Sequence record: PQ567651.1
Source: Escherichia phage cardinal
Strand: one strand, 5' to 3'
DNA: 64,000 bases
A program made the translations under genes and the position numbers. This document shows, piece after piece, positions 1,712 to 31,718 of this stretch. Numbering within the stretch: position 1 is the first letter of the stretch; each line of letters begins with the position of its first letter. The notes under the pieces are model-generated. The model was not told where the DNA came from, ran no database searches, and saw nothing but the letters and a program-made list of their open reading frames with translations.

Positions 1712-2071
1712 TTACGCCACGTTATGCTGTTTTGCCAGGATTACGATCATGCTTGCAATATATAACCAATAATTTTCCCGCTCACGGGTAACGGTTGTTT
1801 CTTTGCTTGTTTCTTTTATGTACTTCCATTCAATTAACAAGTGATCGATCTCGTTATAATCAAAAGCAATATTGATTTCTGACGGTAAACCTTGTAACCA
1901 GGAGGCTATCGCCTTGATCATGTTGTGATTGTAACGTTTTTGATTATCGGGATACCAGTATTCAGATGTAAAACGGCGCATCAGTTCGGTGATCTTTTCT
2001 TTTTCTGTTGTAGTACCCTCAAAAGAAATAGCCGACACAATGTAAGTTTTAATTGCTTTTACTGATTTCAT
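1712..2071 (-). CDS. hypothetical protein
   Basis: 119-aa ORF; promoter/palindrome module upstream at 2092-2112. Confidence 0.5.
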   Translation of the reverse strand: MKSVKAIKTYIVSAISFEGTTTEKEKITELMRRFTSEYWYPDNQKRYNHNMIKAIASWLQGLPSEINIAFDYNEIDHLLIEWKYIKETSKETTVTRERENYWLYIASMIVILAKQHNVA

Positions 2072-2091
2072 AATCTTATCTCTTTATTGTT

Positions 2092-2112
2092 GGCGGGAAA
2101 CCATTCCCCGCC
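2092..2112 (-). promoter_or_regulatory. GC-rich palindrome, member of a repeated leader/operator family
   Basis: ggcgggaaaccattccccgcc inverted repeat about 20 nt upstream of the start codon of 1712..2071; a TGTCAA (TTGACA on minus) lies about 45 nt further upstream. Confidence 0.5.
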
Positions 2113-2343
2113 GTTGTTGTTACTTTACTTATAAATGATGCTACTGTCAAACGGATATTATTTGTTTTTTAACGTTAATGTTCCCAGCTTATCAGCGTGA
2201 CGCAGACCAGGAAAGATCCATTTTCCTGATTCATCTTTTACCGGGGCTTTAAGCGTAGCGCCCAGGTTGGCGGCATTAACTTTACGTGCAACGTTGCGAG
2301 CGGCTTCACGGGTAGCGAAAGTGATCATGATGTTTTCCTCTTC

Positions 2344-2365
2344 TCTTTGTTAGGCGGTGGGCTAT
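2344..2365 (-). promoter_or_regulatory. GC-rich palindrome, same family
   Basis: ggcggtgggctattccaccgcc inverted repeat upstream of an unannotated ~56-aa minus-strand ORF (about 2163-2330). Confidence 0.4.
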
Positions 2366-2419
2366 TCCACCGCCTTGATGAATACAGTTTACTTTATTTT
2401 TGCAGTATTGCAAGCGGTT

Positions 2420-2635
2420 TTATGAAATAAATGTCAAAGTAAAATCATAATCTTTTGACAGTTTATATTGCACCTTGTTACCGTATATGTCACCTTTACG
2501 TAAAGATCCGCGAATACCTATTACATCCTTTACATCTTTAAGATTTTTCACGCCTGTAATGTCTTTATTGAAATGATCGTGATCAGAAAATAAAACCTGC
2601 TTTGCATTTTTTAACAGTGTGCGGATATTAGCCAT
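2420..2635 (-). CDS. hypothetical small protein
   Basis: 71-aa ORF preceded by palindrome 2656-2675. Confidence 0.45.
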   Translation of the reverse strand: MANIRTLLKNAKQVLFSDHDHFNKDITGVKNLKDVKDVIGIRGSLRKGDIYGNKVQYKLSKDYDFTLTFIS

Positions 2636-2655
2636 TTGATAATCTCTCTTACTAG

Positions 2656-2675
2656 GGGCGGCACTATTGCCGCCC
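2656..2675 (-). promoter_or_regulatory. GC-rich palindrome, same family
   Basis: gggcggcactattgccgccc followed by ctatgc..., then TGTCAA at the conserved distance. Confidence 0.45.
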
Positions 2676-2721
2676 TATGCATTACATTTTACTGATTTTA
2701 GTTATCTTGTCAATATTATTT

Positions 2722-2949
2722 TTAGTTTAATTGATCCAGGCACAACAAGCGATCAACATTCAGATCGGTTAGGCTAATCGTTGGCACCTGGTAGGATTCG
2801 ATGTACTCAACGCTCGACCATTGCCCGAAGTTAGCGACCGCCCAGCTATTCAAGGAAGAGTGAAGATCATCCCCTTTCTTCTCGGTGATAACTGCTACTA
2901 CCTGGGAGCTTCCAACCGTACCGGATACGCGAACAATAACGATAGCCAT
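2722..2949 (-). CDS. hypothetical small protein
   Basis: 75-aa ORF; GAAAGG RBS; palindrome 2972-2992 in the leader. Confidence 0.45.
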   Translation of the reverse strand: MAIVIVRVSGTVGSSQVVAVITEKKGDDLHSSLNSWAVANFGQWSSVEYIESYQVPTISLTDLNVDRLLCLDQLN

Positions 2950-2971
2950 AATGATAACCTTTCTTTGATTT

Positions 2972-2992
2972 GGCGGGAAACCATTTCCCGCC
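2972..2992 (-). promoter_or_regulatory. GC-rich palindrome, same family
   Basis: ggcgggaaaccatttcccgcc, identical to the copy at 5675-5695, followed by the conserved ctatgtgata box. Confidence 0.55.
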
Positions 2993-3003
2993 CTATGTGA
3001 TAT

Positions 3004-3031
3004 ATCTTACACTAATTTAAAACGTTGTCAA
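3004..3031 (-). promoter_or_regulatory. sigma70-like promoter (TTGACA, 16-nt spacer, TAAGAT)
   Basis: On the minus strand TTGACA at 3031-3026 and TAAGAT at 3009-3004; predicted transcript start falls at the edge of palindrome 2972-2992. Confidence 0.45.
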
Positions 3032-3126
3032 ATTATTTTCTATTTCTTCCGTAATAGCCCAATTTATGATCTAAGCTAAAACGTTTTGTGAGATAGGTCG
3101 AACGATGTTTCATTTTTATGTCTCCT

Positions 3127-3366
3127 TTACATTCCAACCATAGCGGCACGGATCGCGGTTTTACTGAACTTGAATCCGTCTGGCGTTTTATCTTGATCCA
3201 TACTTTCAAGAAATAACATCATATCCCGCGCTGCGTCATTCTTATTGGTGTTAGCTGCGATAAATTCACGCGCAAGATTATAAAAACCTTCATCGTTGTT
3301 GATCCAAAGGCTTACATTCCAATGAGTTTTGTTTTTGTGACCTAAGAACATTTTAGATTTAGCCAT
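3127..3366 (-). CDS. hypothetical small protein
   Basis: 79-aa ORF; palindrome 3391-3407 upstream. Confidence 0.5.
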   Translation of the reverse strand: MAKSKMFLGHKNKTHWNVSLWINNDEGFYNLAREFIAANTNKNDAARDMMLFLESMDQDKTPDGFKFSKTAIRAAMVGM

Positions 3367-3390
3367 GATGTTAATCTCTTTTTCAGTGAG

Positions 3391-3407
3391 GCGGGAACTA
3401 TTCCCGC
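3391..3407 (-). promoter_or_regulatory. GC-rich palindrome, same family
   Basis: gcgggaactattcccgc, identical core to the copy at 5227-5243; TGTCAA about 45 nt upstream on the minus strand. Confidence 0.5.
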
Positions 3408-3454
3408 TCTCGATATAAGTATTATATGCTTTTTATTCGTGCTGTCAATGCTTT

Positions 3455-3820
3455 TTATAAATCTTTTTTACGTTTAACATCGCTTGCATGACTGTATACA
3501 GCGATCCCATTATCACGGCAAAAACGGGAAAGATACGCGCCGCGTGAAAACTCTTTGCCCTCCAGGTTGATAACCTTGCTAAACTCTTCCAGGGCGACGG
3601 TATCAAAATGATCCCCATAACCATATTGAAACGGAACGTTAACGACTTCAATCAGTTTACCGCCGATCTCAACGTCAACCATCAAAGAGAAATAAGTATT
3701 ACCATAAGACTTTTGAAACCAGCGACGGGCGCTAATATGTACCGCTTCAATGCTGGATAGTTCAATTTTAGCAGTGTTAGCCAGGGTAGCATAAGCAGAA
3801 ACATTGATATTTTTAGCCAT
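3455..3820 (-). CDS. hypothetical protein
   Basis: 121-aa ORF in the co-oriented array. Confidence 0.5.
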   Translation of the reverse strand: MAKNINVSAYATLANTAKIELSSIEAVHISARRWFQKSYGNTYFSLMVDVEIGGKLIEVVNVPFQYGYGDHFDTVALEEFSKVINLEGKEFSRGAYLSRFCRDNGIAVYSHASDVKRKKDL

Positions 3821-4182
3821 AGTCTTTAATCTCTTTTGATTAGTTAGGAGTATTCCCGATAAAAGTTATTATGCTTGTACTATCGTTCGTTGTCAATAGC
3901 ACAAGACTAAAACTTTTAACGATAATCATCATAGGCTTTATTGACCTGGCGAATATAGCATTCAAAAGCTAGATCAATAGATTTATATTCACGGATATAA
4001 TCACCATAGGAAACCACATACATTTCTATAGCTTCCTCATATGCCAGGATGATAGAATCTAAACCTACGATCTCAGTCTTTGCAATAATAGCCATGCTTT
4101 TATTCCTTAGTAATGTTTCAATCTATATAAGCATTATAGCTTACTGATTTCAGGTGTCAAGTGATTTTTTATTTCACCTTAT

Positions 4183-4197
4183 GGGGCGTTGCCCCGC
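4183..4197 (-). promoter_or_regulatory. GC-rich palindrome, same family (degenerate)
   Basis: ggggcgttgccccgc followed by tttatgtggtacat and TGTCAA at 4233-4238. Confidence 0.35.
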
Positions 4198-4241
4198 TTT
4201 ATGTGGTACATATTACGGGGCTTGTTCGCATATGTCAAGCC

Positions 4242-4796
4242 TTACACAAGACAATTTTCATAATTTTTTAGGGCTTGTCTTTTTTCCTCTTCCGTCGGCA
4301 TGTATGGCTGGATCTCTTCCTCTTCCAGGGTAGGCATGATTTCTTCCTCTTCCTCCTGGTCGTCCTGGTCTTCCTCTTGCGCTACTGCAACAAGTTTATT
4401 GATCTTCTCCTGGGCTTTAATCAATTTTGCATCTAGCACCATTTTAGCGGTGTTGTATACCGTCCATGCCATGCGTTTTTCTTCGTATGCTTTATCTAGT
4501 GCGGCTAATTTAGCGGGATACTCTTCCAACACCTTAAAAGCCGGATCAATGCTGTATAAGGGATTATTTTTAGCGTCATCGCTTGGATCTGCGGCGCTTG
4601 CAATGTCAGCGTTGCCATTCGCCAGCCATCCAGGGCGAACGGATCGCGCCTTTGTGTTGCCGTTGCTCTTTGCCGCTCGATTTCCTATCTGCTCCCCGCT
4701 ATACCCTACCATGTGATCGATCATGTCATCTGGTATTATGCGCGGATCATTAGCGTCATGCTTTACCCAGGACTGGATCACATATTCACGCCCCAT
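4242..4796 (-). CDS. hypothetical protein with acidic glutamate-rich N-terminal region
   Basis: 184-aa ORF; poly-E tract in the N-terminal region (coded at the high-coordinate end on the minus strand). Confidence 0.5.
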   Translation of the reverse strand: MGREYVIQSWVKHDANDPRIIPDDMIDHMVGYSGEQIGNRAAKSNGNTKARSVRPGWLANGNADIASAADPSDDAKNNPLYSIDPAFKVLEEYPAKLAALDKAYEEKRMAWTVYNTAKMVLDAKLIKAQEKINKLVAVAQEEDQDDQEEEEEIMPTLEEEEIQPYMPTEEEKRQALKNYENCLV

Positions 4797-5058
4797 GTTC
4801 GTTCGCCTCTTCTGTTAGTAGTTTACATACCTTAAACATGCTTGCCGCGTCTTTTGACGGTAGCCAGCCTATGCGATACACTCCAGGATCTGGATTCGTT
4901 ATATCTGTTAATTGAGCGTTACGATGATTAAAAATAGTGTAACCGCCGCCAGCACGGGGATAAACATTATCTTTAAACCTGATAGCGTATCTCGCCAGGT
5001 TGAACGTTGTAGCATGTTCAAAAGCGATCACATTATCAAAAACTTTTAGAAAAAACAA
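4786..5058 (-). CDS. hypothetical small protein
   Basis: 90-aa ORF overlapping the upstream gene end by a few codons, typical phage packing. Confidence 0.45.
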   Translation of the reverse strand: MFFLKVFDNVIAFEHATTFNLARYAIRFKDNVYPRAGGGYTIFNHRNAQLTDITNPDPGVYRIGWLPSKDAASMFKVCKLLTEEANEHGA

Positions 5059-5226
5059 GATTATCCTCCCCAGCGTTTAAAGCCCGTTGCACGGTTATTT
5101 TTTAACTCTCGTTTTAGTCTCTTGCAACGGTTTACAAGTGCAAACCGTGCCGGAGTGGTAACAGTAGCGCCGTTTTTGGTGTGAATACTCATTACATATT
5201 GTTTCATAAAGTTTTATCCTATGTAA

Positions 5227-5243
5227 GCGGGAACTATTCCCGC
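5227..5243 (-). promoter_or_regulatory. GC-rich palindrome, same family
   Basis: gcgggaactattcccgc upstream of an unannotated ~43-aa minus-strand ORF; TGTCAA at the conserved offset. Confidence 0.45.
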
Positions 5244-5285
5244 TTTAAGATAGCTTATCAGGTTTTAGTGCAATGTCAACCGTTT

Positions 5286-5648
5286 TTATTCGTAAATTTT
5301 ACCGCTTTCTACCCATACCATAACGCGGCGCATATTATCCCATGCATCTTGTCGCAGATTTAAGGCATGCAATTCTTCGGTTGTGCTCATACCTGGTACG
5401 GGCTTGCTATATGTTACAAAGAGATCGCCAGCATATTCATAAGCCAGGGTAAGATCACATTGAATCATCTTTTTAAGCATAGCATTAAGCATCATATTAG
5501 CGGCATGTTGATCACGTTTTAGCGGTAGCGTTGCGATCTGTGAGCGATAGCTTTCGATCCGTGCATCCACTGCATCACGTGGAAGATTTTTCACGTCGTC
5601 GCGGAAAGATACCAGGTTTAACATGATAGTATTGATTTGCTTGCTCAT
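5286..5648 (-). CDS. hypothetical protein
   Basis: 120-aa ORF; palindrome and promoter module immediately upstream. Confidence 0.5.
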   Translation of the reverse strand: MSKQINTIMLNLVSFRDDVKNLPRDAVDARIESYRSQIATLPLKRDQHAANMMLNAMLKKMIQCDLTLAYEYAGDLFVTYSKPVPGMSTTEELHALNLRQDAWDNMRRVMVWVESGKIYE

Positions 5649-5674
5649 TGTGTTACCCTTTCTTTGATGGCCTG

Positions 5675-5695
5675 GCGGGAAACCATTTCCCGCCC
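5675..5695 (-). promoter_or_regulatory. GC-rich palindrome, same family
   Basis: ggcgggaaaccatttcccgcc plus ctatgtgata box, identical to the 2972-2992 copy. Confidence 0.55.
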
Positions 5696-5705
5696 TATGT
5701 GATAC

Positions 5706-5733
5706 ATCTTATCAGATTAAAAAACGTTGTCAA
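5706..5733 (-). promoter_or_regulatory. sigma70-like promoter (TTGACA, 16-nt spacer, TAAGAT)
   Basis: TTGACA at 5733-5728 and TAAGAT at 5711-5706 on the minus strand, same architecture as 3004-3031. Confidence 0.45.
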
Positions 5734-5752
5734 GAATATTTTTTAGATAATT

Positions 5753-6067
5753 TTAACTATATGATCCACATTGTTCGCAGTAGTGATCATCGTCGCCATC
5801 AGCTACCTGGCTGATAAAGTGATCTACTTTTGCTTTTAGGTTATTATAATTGTTTTCTACTTCCTTTAATCGCTCCTGATAGTAGCCCAGGGCTTTAATA
5901 TACGCCGCCTCTTCTGTTTTTTCACGCATGGCTAAATTCATGCCGCGCGTATCATCATACAGCCAAAAGCCATCGGTACATTCACTCATTGAAAGGGTAG
6001 GGCTTAACTCTTTATGATTAATTACCTTGCTCATAGTGTGCGCCTTATAGAATGATTGAAACAACAA
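5753..6067 (-). CDS. hypothetical protein with C-terminal cysteine cluster
   Basis: 104-aa ORF ending ...HYCEQCGSYS, possibly a small zinc-binding motif. Confidence 0.45.
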   Translation of the reverse strand: MLFQSFYKAHTMSKVINHKELSPTLSMSECTDGFWLYDDTRGMNLAMREKTEEAAYIKALGYYQERLKEVENNYNNLKAKVDHFISQVADGDDDHYCEQCGSYS

Positions 6068-6418
6068 TTGCTACAGTGATCCACACTGGAACGGCTAACA
6101 AAATAGCGTTAATCGTTCCAACCGTCAAGCTGTTTTCTTTCTTGATCATCGTTATCAACCTTTTATAAGTAATGTTATTGTGACGGTGGATTGTGGAGAT
6201 CCTCACCTTTGCCCGTCCTGCATTGCGCCCTCCTTTTGTTTATTGTCGTTGTGCCTCGCCCCCCTCGACAAGATGAATAATACGCTACCAGGTGAGGAAC
6301 GTCAACCCCTTTTTTAATCTTTTTTTCATTTCTTTTTTTTGCTTGCTATCTATAAAGGAAAGGGCTATTATCTTTCTACCACGCCAACCAGGGCGCACAT
6401 CAAAGAAAGGGCGATACC

Positions 6419-30663: not shown

Positions 30664-30740
30664 TTGACTTTCTTTAAAAACAGTTTATAGTATAAGACAT
30701 AGAGCGGAGGATTGTCCTCCGCATTAAAGAGGAGAAAAGA

Positions 30741-31718
30741 ATGCAACTGGGTTTCCCAATTATTGATGTGGTTGTTTTAGTGGGTATTTTAGTCTTGTCG
30801 ATTTGTATTGACTTCTTTGGACACAGAGAAAACAAAGAAATTTCATTTAAATCGGCAGTTGGTTGGTCAATTTTCTGGATTGGAGTATCATTAGCCTACT
30901 ATGGTTTTGTATACTTCCAACACGGTGCTGATTTTGCGAGCTTGTTCTTGAGTGGGTATGTGTTGGAGAAATCTCTTTCTGTAGATAACTTAGTAGTATT
31001 TGTGGCAGTATTCGCAAGTTTTGGTATTAAAAGCACACACTTGCAACACAAGATTCTACTTTGGGGTATTGCAGGTGCGATTGTCTTCCGAGGTGTGTTT
31101 GTAGCAGTAGGCACTTACTTGTTGAGTTTGGGCTGGTATGTTAATATCTTCTTCGGTGCTGTCATCCTTTTCTGTGCGGCTAAAATGGTATTCGCTGGAG
31201 ATAATGATGCAGAAGTTGATTACTCTAAACACTGGGCTACTCGCATTGTTCGTAAGCTGTTCCCTGTATCTGATCAGATGGATGGTGAGAAGTTCTTCAC
31301 AATCAAAAATGGTGTTCGTGTAGCAACTCCGGCTCTGGTTTGTGTGTTTGTAATGGAAATGGTTGACGTAATCTTTGCAGTAGACTCTGTTCCAGCAGTA
31401 ATTGCAGTGACACAAGAACCTCTGCTTGTATTTTCTTCGATGCTCTGTGCAATCTTAGGTTTACGTGCTCTGTTCTTTGTTCTTAGTGTTGCACTGAAGT
31501 ATTTGGTTCATCTGGAGAAAGCAGTTATCGTAGTCCTGGTATTTGTGGGTGCAAAACTGATGTATCATCCGTTTGCAGAAACTCTGCACGCAAAAATGAG
31601 TTTCCTGCCAGCACACATTGATCCGACGATCAGTATGTATATTGTGTTAGGTACTCTTGGGTTGGGTGTTGTTGCAAGTTTAATCTTCCCTGAAAAAGAA
31701 GATCAGACTGTTGCTTAA
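30741..31718 (+). CDS. TerC-family integral membrane protein
   Basis: Multiple transmembrane helices and both TerC signature repeats: LEKSLSVDNLVVFVAVF and MVDVIFAVDSVPAVIAVT. Confidence 0.75.
   Translation: MQLGFPIIDVVVLVGILVLSICIDFFGHRENKEISFKSAVGWSIFWIGVSLAYYGFVYFQHGADFASLFLSGYVLEKSLSVDNLVVFVAVFASFGIKSTHLQHKILLWGIAGAIVFRGVFVAVGTYLLSLGWYVNIFFGAVILFCAAKMVFAGDNDAEVDYSKHWATRIVRKLFPVSDQMDGEKFFTIKNGVRVATPALVCVFVMEMVDVIFAVDSVPAVIAVTQEPLLVFSSMLCAILGLRALFFVLSVALKYLVHLEKAVIVVLVFVGAKLMYHPFAETLHAKMSFLPAHIDPTISMYIVLGTLGLGVVASLIFPEKEDQTVA

Follow-up and report, generated by a model that had tools for sequence, protein, structure and literature searches.

A repeated promoter and predicted 5′-hairpin cassette in front of small minus-strand genes of a phi92-like phage

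The small-gene block and its repeated cassette

A 64,000-nucleotide (nt) stretch of DNA from Escherichia phage cardinal (record PQ567651.1), referred to below as the window, was analysed with attention to a GC-rich palindrome that recurs in front of small genes. Between positions 2069 and 5745, the minus strand bears seven intact copies of a cassette in which a promoter is followed by this palindrome, together with three further copies: one gene-less with a short stem of 5 bp, one decayed and one reduced to the promoter only. The palindromes were located by reading the minus strand and by an exhaustive hairpin scan, which found them where a first-pass annotation of the sequence had placed them; the ‘at least eight’ copies of that annotation correspond to seven strong ones and the short one, the decayed remnant being additional. 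Its claim that the cassette precedes nearly every early gene proved too broad, since only seven of the ∼12 open reading frames (ORFs) in 2069–5745 have an intact one.

Positions 2000–6000 of the window matched ∼275 phage records, the best being Escherichia phage AV123 (96.5% identity over the full length). AV123 is classified as a Justusliebigvirus of the Stephanstirmvirinae, and the window is that of a phi92-like myovirus. Its minus-strand genes are homologues of phi92 gp225–gp240, all of them annotated as hypothetical, and those driven by cassettes all belong to PHROGs of unknown function. The block of small genes extends to the right terminal repeat in phi92, and in AV123 opens a 23-kb run of small genes that share a strand (79.2–102.5 kb). 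Its expression is presumed to be early.

Reading along the gene strand, the cassette consists of an A-tract, TTGACA, a spacer of 16–17 nt, TAnnnT, some 10 nt that often contain CACATAG, the hairpin, a ribosome site of the AAAGAGA type and the ATG. The hairpin is made up of an outer clamp (GGCGG), a variable inner stem and loop, and CCGC(C/U), spanning 17–24 nt in a typical cassette; the A/G-rich leader of ∼20 nt that follows is unstructured and carries the predicted ribosome site. In the window, TAnnnT lies 16–17 nt past TTGACA (TTGCAA in one copy), and the hairpin begins 6–14 nt past TAnnnT and ends 17–25 nt ahead of the ATG, so that the 20–30 nt given in the first-pass annotation was roughly right. 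The tatcacatag box described there as conserved is exact in two of the window's copies and present as variants in the others.

Statistics were obtained from 89 distinct cassettes. The −35 element is a perfect TTGACA in 85 of them, the spacer measures 16 nt in 63 and 17 nt in 26, and the consensus includes an A-tract upstream of the −35 and a TAnnnT −10 that in many copies is preceded by TGn. In a promoter scan the cassette sites ranked among the best of the region; 16 sites matched the consensus at 10 or more of 12 positions, and 14 of these were on the minus strand. These features bear out the promoters proposed earlier and support near-consensus sigma-70 elements, which would be expected to be active. 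From the end of the −10 to the first paired base there are 10–11 nt in 68 of the 89 (mean 10.4, standard deviation 1.6), and a segment gTAtcaCaTAG is conserved in between. The hairpin, with a mean energy of −14.8 kcal/mol, is 17–30 nt long (17–24 nt in 85 cassettes), and its distance to the ATG is more variable (mean 20.8 nt, standard deviation 5.4).

The RNA polymerase of Escherichia coli starts transcription ∼6–9 nt past the −10. Since the stem begins 10–11 nt past it, the hairpin is predicted to start around nucleotide +3 to +5 of the RNA; with the start assumed rather than mapped, this geometry leaves 2–5 unpaired nucleotides before the stem. On such spacing the hairpin would not precede the transcript start and would belong at the 5′-end of the RNA, as had been proposed. 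A candidate N4-type hairpin promoter was dropped because normal −35 and −10 elements are present, and so was a sigma-70-dependent promoter-proximal pause element, the box having no convincing −10-like hexamer.

The copies are described here in their order along the minus strand. Cassette I (5646–5745) stands upstream of a 120-amino-acid (aa) ORFan (5286–5648, ATG at 5648). It has an A-tract, a −35 at 5733–5728, a TGn-extended −10 (TAAGAT, 5711–5706), the box gtatcacatag and, at 5694–5674, the perfect inverted repeat GGCGGGAAATGGTTTCCCGCC, whose 9 bp and 3-nt loop give −16.6 kcal/mol (z-score −2.7 against shuffles). Cassette H (5205–5290) precedes a 48-aa ORF (5061–5207, ATG at 5207), with a −35 at 5279–5274, the −10 TAAGCT at 5257–5252 and the perfect repeat AAGCGGGAATAGTTCCCGCTT at 5245–5225 (−15.1 kcal/mol, z −3.9). 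This last hairpin and its counterpart in AV123 (80033–80053) are identical save for the 3-nt loop, which is the exact reverse complement: the loop reads TAG in the window and in the related phages Paula and OZ035770, CTA in AV123 and A150, and TTG in phi92 and PD211. The TAG/CTA pair is compatible with a palindrome flip or template switch in DNA, rather than three point changes.

Further along lies a 184-aa ORFan (4242–4796, minus strand) that contains a strongly acidic run (EEEDQDDQEEEEEIMPTLEEEEIQPYMPTEEEK), at which its similarity to phAPEC8-like homologues stops (high-scoring segment pair ending at 4342). The orphan cassette G2 (4176–4245) has its −35 at 4238–4233, the −10 TAATAT at 4215–4210 and a short hairpin at 4195–4183 (GGGGC/GCCCC) that is weak (z −1.5). 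No ORF stands behind it and the next promoter (4160) begins directly after; it looks like a solo cassette left by the deletion of its gene. That next promoter is cassette G (4093–4160), a TTGACA-16-TATAAT arrangement matching the consensus at 12 of 12 positions, which lacks a hairpin and lies upstream of a 59-aa ORFan (3916–4095). The decayed cassette F (3818–3896) precedes a 121-aa ORFan (3455–3820); its −35 is at 3896–3891, its −10 (CATAAT) at 3873–3868 and the remnant of its hairpin (gggaatactcc) at 3857–3847.

Cassette E (3364–3448) is upstream of a 79-aa ORF with a DUF7249 assignment (3127–3366). Its −35 lies at 3448–3443 and its −10 (TATAAT) at 3426–3421; the perfect repeat GCGGGAATAGTTCCCGC at 3407–3391 reaches 3411–3388 if a bulge is allowed, giving 7 bp, a bulged A and a further 3 bp (−15.3 kcal/mol, z −3.5). 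Cassette D (2947–3031), in front of a 75-aa ORFan (2722–2949), has a −35 at 3031–3026, the −10 TAAGAT at 3009–3004, the box atatcacatag and a second copy of GGCGGGAAATGGTTTCCCGCC at 2992–2972 (−15.4 kcal/mol, z −3.4; 59.4 bits with the covariance model described below). Between this cassette and the stop codon of the 79-aa gene there is an 87-nt insertion (3033–3127, minus strand) with a strong AAGGAG ribosome site and a 26-aa mini-ORF; it occurs in the window, AV123, Paula, the alia-like OZ035770 and ASO2A, and not in phi92, A150 or PD211.

Cassette C (2633–2713), upstream of a 71-aa ORFan (2420–2635), has a −35 at 2713–2708, the −10 TAAAAT at 2691–2686 and the perfect repeat GGGCGGCAATAGTGCCGCCC at 2675–2656, which forms 8 bp with a 4-nt loop (−16.9 kcal/mol, z −4.9). 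Cassette B (2326–2413), which serves a 56-aa ORFan (2158–2328), combines a weak −35 (TTGCAA, 2413–2408) and the −10 TAAACT (2391–2386) with the perfect repeat AGGCGGTGGAATAGCCCACCGCCT at 2375–2352, in which 9 bp with a differing inner stem (TGG/CCA) enclose a 6-nt loop (−18.7 kcal/mol, z −4.9). Finally, cassette A (2069–2150) precedes a 119-aa ORFan (1712–2071); its −35 is at 2150–2145, its −10 (TAAAGT) at 2127–2122, and its hairpin at 2112–2092 carries a single G.T in the DNA, so that one of its nine pairs is G.U (−15.0 kcal/mol, z −3.3; 50.9 bits).

Structure and strand of the palindrome

When the predicted leaders were folded, a check that the first-pass annotation had proposed, the hairpin formed at −15 to −19 kcal/mol with z-scores of −2.7 to −4.9 relative to shuffles, and the A/G-rich ribosome site and the ATG remained unpaired. 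Pairing was then counted in a model-based alignment of 76 distinct sequences from 11 related phages. In all, 98.2% of the stem cells pair. Six of the nine stem pairs are altered on both sides (46 cells), examples being G-C to C-G (49 vs 22) and A-U to G-C (40 vs 17). None of 500 shuffles attained the observed pairing values, which collapse when the register is slid. MAFFT alignments of whole cassettes and of hairpin contexts placed gaps in one arm only and were left out of the pair counts.

The departures from Watson–Crick pairing, read on the gene strand, comprise 49 G.U cells, 6 A.C and 5 of other kinds. No preference for G.T over A.C would be expected of a duplex-DNA site or of an antisense RNA, and the excess of G.U together with the variable spacing of the arms (17–30 nt) points to a hairpin in the sense RNA rather than to a dimer operator of fixed geometry. 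The asymmetry is supportive only, the cells not being independent events; a tally of events by eye was near even (about 5–6 lineages with G.U vs 4 with A.C). With this proviso, the palindrome fits an RNA hairpin of the sense transcript. The same data bear on the possibility, raised in the first-pass annotation, that the palindromes are DNA operators at which a dimeric repressor, bound at +4 to +25, would shut the early promoters. Such a site would be palindromic, would overlap the region of the transcription start, on which many repressors act, and would account for the conserved GGCGG and CCGCC half-sites; yet the hairpins range in length from 17 to 30 nt, the inner positions differ between copies and covary instead of being conserved, and the 49-to-6 imbalance between G.T and A.C is unexpected for duplex DNA. 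Operators are very unlikely on these grounds.

RNase III-type processing, also proposed earlier, would cut polycistronic early RNA into monocistronic units. In the early RNA of T7, RNase III sites are known between cistrons, and the hairpins do lie between cistrons. RNase III needs about two helical turns, ∼20 bp; stems of just 5–10 bp make such sites unlikely, and with a promoter in front of each gene, processing would be needless. We consider this reading extremely improbable.

The absence of a U-run, from which the first-pass annotation had concluded that the palindromes are not intrinsic terminators, held up. A T-run was sought after every cassette hairpin on either strand and none was found, the tails being A-rich or mixed, and a terminator consensus scan called no cassette hairpin. 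The GC-rich hairpins of AV123 fall into two classes: genome-wide terminators with A- and T-runs in the stem, and GCGG…CCGC hairpins that have no T-run. The former include the AAAGGGGC/GCCCCTTT-type terminators, distinct from the cassette hairpins, to which belongs the bidirectional intrinsic terminator AAAAGGGCGC-loop-GCGCCCTTTT at 1531–1555 of the window (both strands); it follows a 45-aa ORF (1559–1696) and closes the first run of early genes. The cassette hairpins resemble Rho-independent terminators in being GC-rich and intergenic, and differ from them in lacking a T-run on both strands and in standing after a promoter rather than after a stop codon.

It could nonetheless be argued that the hairpins insulate each of the small genes, acting as terminators or attenuators against transcription begun at upstream cassettes. 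In the T4-type phages RB49 and phi1, the stem-loop of the promoter-early stem-loop (PeSL) cassette PeSL211/210 reduced expression of lacZ to about the same degree as did the rrnB T1 terminator (PMC2839356). Tolerance of G.U on the gene strand is also compatible with termination, and annotation programs call the palindromes terminators: the record of Paula (LR865361) labels the cassette hairpins as rho-independent terminators, and that of ASO2A (MZ726793) places ‘promoter’ and then ‘terminator’ pairs directly ahead of each start codon. The labels in Paula, however, are on the strand opposite to the genes, and in both records they are probably software false positives. Moreover, the hairpin lies at about +4 to +25 after its own promoter, where an efficient terminator would abort its own transcript; given this, the silent scan and a separate class of real terminators in the genome, we hold insulation to be unlikely.

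A further possibility is that the hairpin RNA, perhaps with the CACATAG box, binds a phage or host factor that regulates the whole early class, for example a translational repressor, a nuclease guide for the shut-off of early mRNA or an antitermination-type modifier. In its favour, the element is found on the sense strand and keeps a fixed position within the transcript, and the outer GGCGG/CCGCC and a loop centre AAT(A/G)GT recur across cassettes despite differing inner stems. Against this, in some orthologous sets the loops vary freely (TAG, CAC, TAC, TTG, CTA), stem length ranges from 5 to 10 bp, no candidate protein emerged, and the shared sequence is explicable by the common descent of the cassettes. 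Regulation of this kind, whichever factor is considered, is in our estimate unlikely.

Distribution of the cassette and gene gain and loss

A strict scan for a promoter followed by a GC-rich hairpin gave nine matches in the window, compared with 0–1 across 30 shuffles. To extend the search, a covariance model was built from a gap-free seed of 16 copies and all matches were realigned to it. The model is narrow: in the window, hairpins of the GCGGGAATAGTTCCCGC and TGG/CCA types, those of cassettes E, H and B, escape it, and counts made with it are therefore lower bounds. Run over 210 kb on both strands, it matched only the early block and one other place, 30690–30730, and all 111 of its matches in the 11 phages were on the gene strand. 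The single outlying copy belongs to a cassette on the plus strand (30664–30743), far from the early block, upstream of a gene for a 325-aa TerC-like membrane protein (30741–31718; the name is taken from the annotation of AV123). Its promoter is TTGACT-16-TATAGT, with the −35 abutting the stop codon of the preceding ORF; it has a cataga box (ataagacataga) and the hairpin GCGGAGGATTGTCCTCCGC at 30704–30722 (−15 kcal/mol, z −4.2; 20.8 bits, E 0.02), and is kept in AV123.

In the complete genome of AV123, 12 of 14 GCGG..CCGC hairpins are found at 80.0–88.4 kb, within the initial 9 kb of the early block. One of the other two precedes the TerC-like gene, and the other (95675–95691) is the one copy inside an annotated coding sequence (95631–95849), so that the motif does not occur in coding DNA at a density like that of the block, a pattern that the first-pass annotation had said would speak against its proposal. 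In relatives the family runs past the left edge of the window, with six more copies in AV123 at 85.4–88.4 kb. A blastn search with a 91-nt cassette retrieved 136 phage records and 450 places, mainly in phi92-like and phAPEC8-like phages. The rV5-like phage FV3 (Vequintavirinae) has the cassette at 529–567, 4027–4064 and 4302–4339, at lower density, which indicates that the family is older than the Stephanstirmvirinae or was exchanged between subfamilies. A scan of IMG/VR for the commonest cassette type yielded two contigs of the same phage group. In Rfam, searched at a permissive threshold, nothing overlapped a hairpin, and the four sub-threshold matches were unrelated. Our literature search found no description of the cassette for phi92-, phAPEC8- or rV5-like phages, only counts of promoters and terminators. 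Separately, ∼19 UNVERIFIED records named as Campylobacter phages (A150, that is MG065639, and its sisters) share ∼93% identity with this E. coli phage group and are classified as Justusliebigvirus; their host label looks doubtful.

The insertions and deletions that distinguish the window from ten relatives were then placed with respect to the cassettes. Their ends, at 5719, 5687, 4089/3820, 3462/3393 and 3039, all lie in or at cassettes. Cassette I offers the clearest example. As far as CATAGGGCGG, its 5′ part matches exactly the cassette found upstream of gp226 in Paula, and its 3′ part the one upstream of gp227, the crossover falling within CATAGGGCGG; gp226 was thus deleted by a crossover at the stem base, which left this chimera. 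The gene content agrees, phi92 having gp225, gp226 and gp227, Paula gp226 and gp227, and the window gp225 and gp227. Neither phi92 nor PD211 has the 59-aa gene or cassette F, and the junction in these phages falls at ATGGCTA. In A150 an additional gene is inserted between two copies of cassette E; duplicated cassette copies flank the extra genes of both phi92 and A150. In ESCO13-type phages the modules of the 184-aa and 120-aa genes stand in reversed order, and five genes that are bounded by cassettes or adjacent to them assort independently among the 11 phages. Read at the level of sequence, the cassettes are junctions of the recombination by which genes have been gained and lost among relatives, an aspect that the first-pass annotation had overlooked, as it had the PeSL precedent (PMC2839356, PMC4122927). 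The real evidence for recombination is carried by the chimeric cassette and the duplicated flanking copies.

At 6123–6305 (minus strand), two TTGACG promoter-like sites (6305–6300 and 6128–6123) enclose 177 nt absent from AV123. AV123 reads through one TTGACG where the window has two, as in a deletion between two −35 hexamers, and thereby loses the start of a small membrane-protein ORF (MIKKENSL...).

A PeSL-like explanation and its bearing on this phage group

The explanation that we favour, and which taken as a whole seems to us fairly probable, is that the region represents a hyperplastic block of early genes assembled from repeats of an expression cassette ∼85–100 bp long, and that this family of promoter and 5′-hairpin cassettes is PeSL-like and doubles as a substrate for gene shuffling. 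Host RNA polymerase would fire every cassette straight after infection. The hairpin would form in the sense RNA from about +3/+5 to +25, leaving few 5′ nucleotides unpaired, and could protect the mRNA against 5′-end-dependent decay (RppH, RNase E), as for ompA and papA. In read-through RNA from an upstream cassette, the same hairpin might serve as a 3′ barrier to exonucleases. Because ∼50–90 nt are common to the copies, recombination between cassettes would delete, insert and reshuffle the genes that they flank.

PeSLs were described in the T4-type phages RB49, phi1, PST and nt-1 (Arbiol et al. 2010, PMC2839356; Comeau et al. 2014, PMC4122927). The present cassettes share with them a strong sigma-70-like early promoter with an AT-rich upstream region and a stable stem-loop (here as a match in sequence), conservation over ∼100 bp up to the Shine–Dalgarno and start codon, a dense distribution upstream of ORFans in hyperplastic regions, and recombination between copies that gives gene insertions and deletions and chimeric cassettes, with the crossover in or beside the stem-loop. 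They differ in lineage (Stephanstirmvirinae and Vequintavirinae, not T4-like), and no similarity to the T4-type PeSLs was seen at the sequence level: the blastn matches listed, 60 of the 136 records, were phi92-, phAPEC8- and rV5-like phages with no T4-type phage among them; RB49 was not scanned with the model. The T4-type stem-loop also varies in position, lying mostly between or over the −35 and −10, whereas here it would always be transcribed, ∼10 nt past the −10; and it is described as an effective terminator, whereas no T-run follows the present hairpins, and termination at +25 would defeat the cassette's own purpose.

As to the hairpin itself, the first-pass annotation had listed 5′ stabilising stem-loops among its options. 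This option fits best with the compensatory changes and with the tolerance of G.U on the gene strand only, and mRNA stabilisation would be the likeliest function, a plausible though not secure reading. In E. coli, the 5′-terminal stem-loops of ompA and papA stabilise mRNA (Emory 1992; Bouvet & Belasco 1992; Arnold 1998; Bricker 1999; all cited in the review PMC3997798). They resemble the cassette in having a stable hairpin a few nucleotides from the 5′-end (a predicted end here) and then an accessible ribosome site; they differ in being single chromosomal genes for which half-life effects were measured, the present case being a multi-copy phage family known from sequence.

Units of gene exchange that carry their own promoters form another point of comparison. 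The morons of lambdoid phages, which Juhala and Hendrix are said to have described in 2000, and the SPO1 host-takeover module, reportedly due to Stewart in 1998, both consist of small accessory genes, each with a strong host-type promoter, that are gained and lost as units. The SPO1 module is also said to cluster at the genome end, much as the phi92 block reaches the right terminal repeat. Morons, unlike the cassettes, reportedly tend to have a terminator after the gene and no common repeated cassette sequence. To our knowledge, neither system has been described with a conserved 5′ hairpin.

Several considerations weigh against the PeSL-like explanation. Protection by 5′ stem-loops, going by the ompA work, tolerates few unpaired nucleotides, and the predicted 2–5 are at the upper edge of what it allows. 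Five promoters of the block (4160, 1315, 850, 459 and 238) have no hairpin, which implies that it is dispensable for expression. The alignment used for the pair counts was fitted to the model, and its sequences are paralogues and orthologues that share descent rather than independent events; strand-biased C-to-T mutation of the non-template strand could partly contribute to the G.U excess. The position of breakpoints is by itself weak evidence, as insertions and deletions would in any case be expected between genes and the intergenic DNA here is nearly all cassette. Lastly, a literature search for this phage group found no transcript 5′ ends, half-lives or promoter activities.

A rather doubtful extension is that the CACATAG box and the GC-clamped hairpin form, beyond passive stabilisation, a recognition element for a dedicated system acting on all early transcripts or on the cassettes themselves. 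In one version, a phage factor could shut off or process the whole early class via the 5′ hairpin. In another, a hairpin-directed template switch or a structure-specific nuclease could copy and move cassettes, making them a self-propagating mobile promoter element; the exact inversion of the loop from TAG to CTA and the stem-base crossover are compatible with hairpin events at the DNA level.

If the PeSL-like explanation holds, the idea that such cassettes both express and shuffle accessory genes would extend to a family unrelated in sequence, in the phi92-, phAPEC8- and rV5-like phages that are widely used in phage-therapy collections. A recurrent annotation error would be corrected, since public records present the hairpins as ‘terminators’ and one of them puts these on the wrong strand. 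Some 90 variants of a strong promoter with a 5′ hairpin would offer a natural library in which the effect of 5′ structure on mRNA life span could be tested during infection. Recombination between the cassettes would account for the early block being more variable than any other part of these genomes, and the small ORFans behind them are likely candidates for host takeover or anti-defence.

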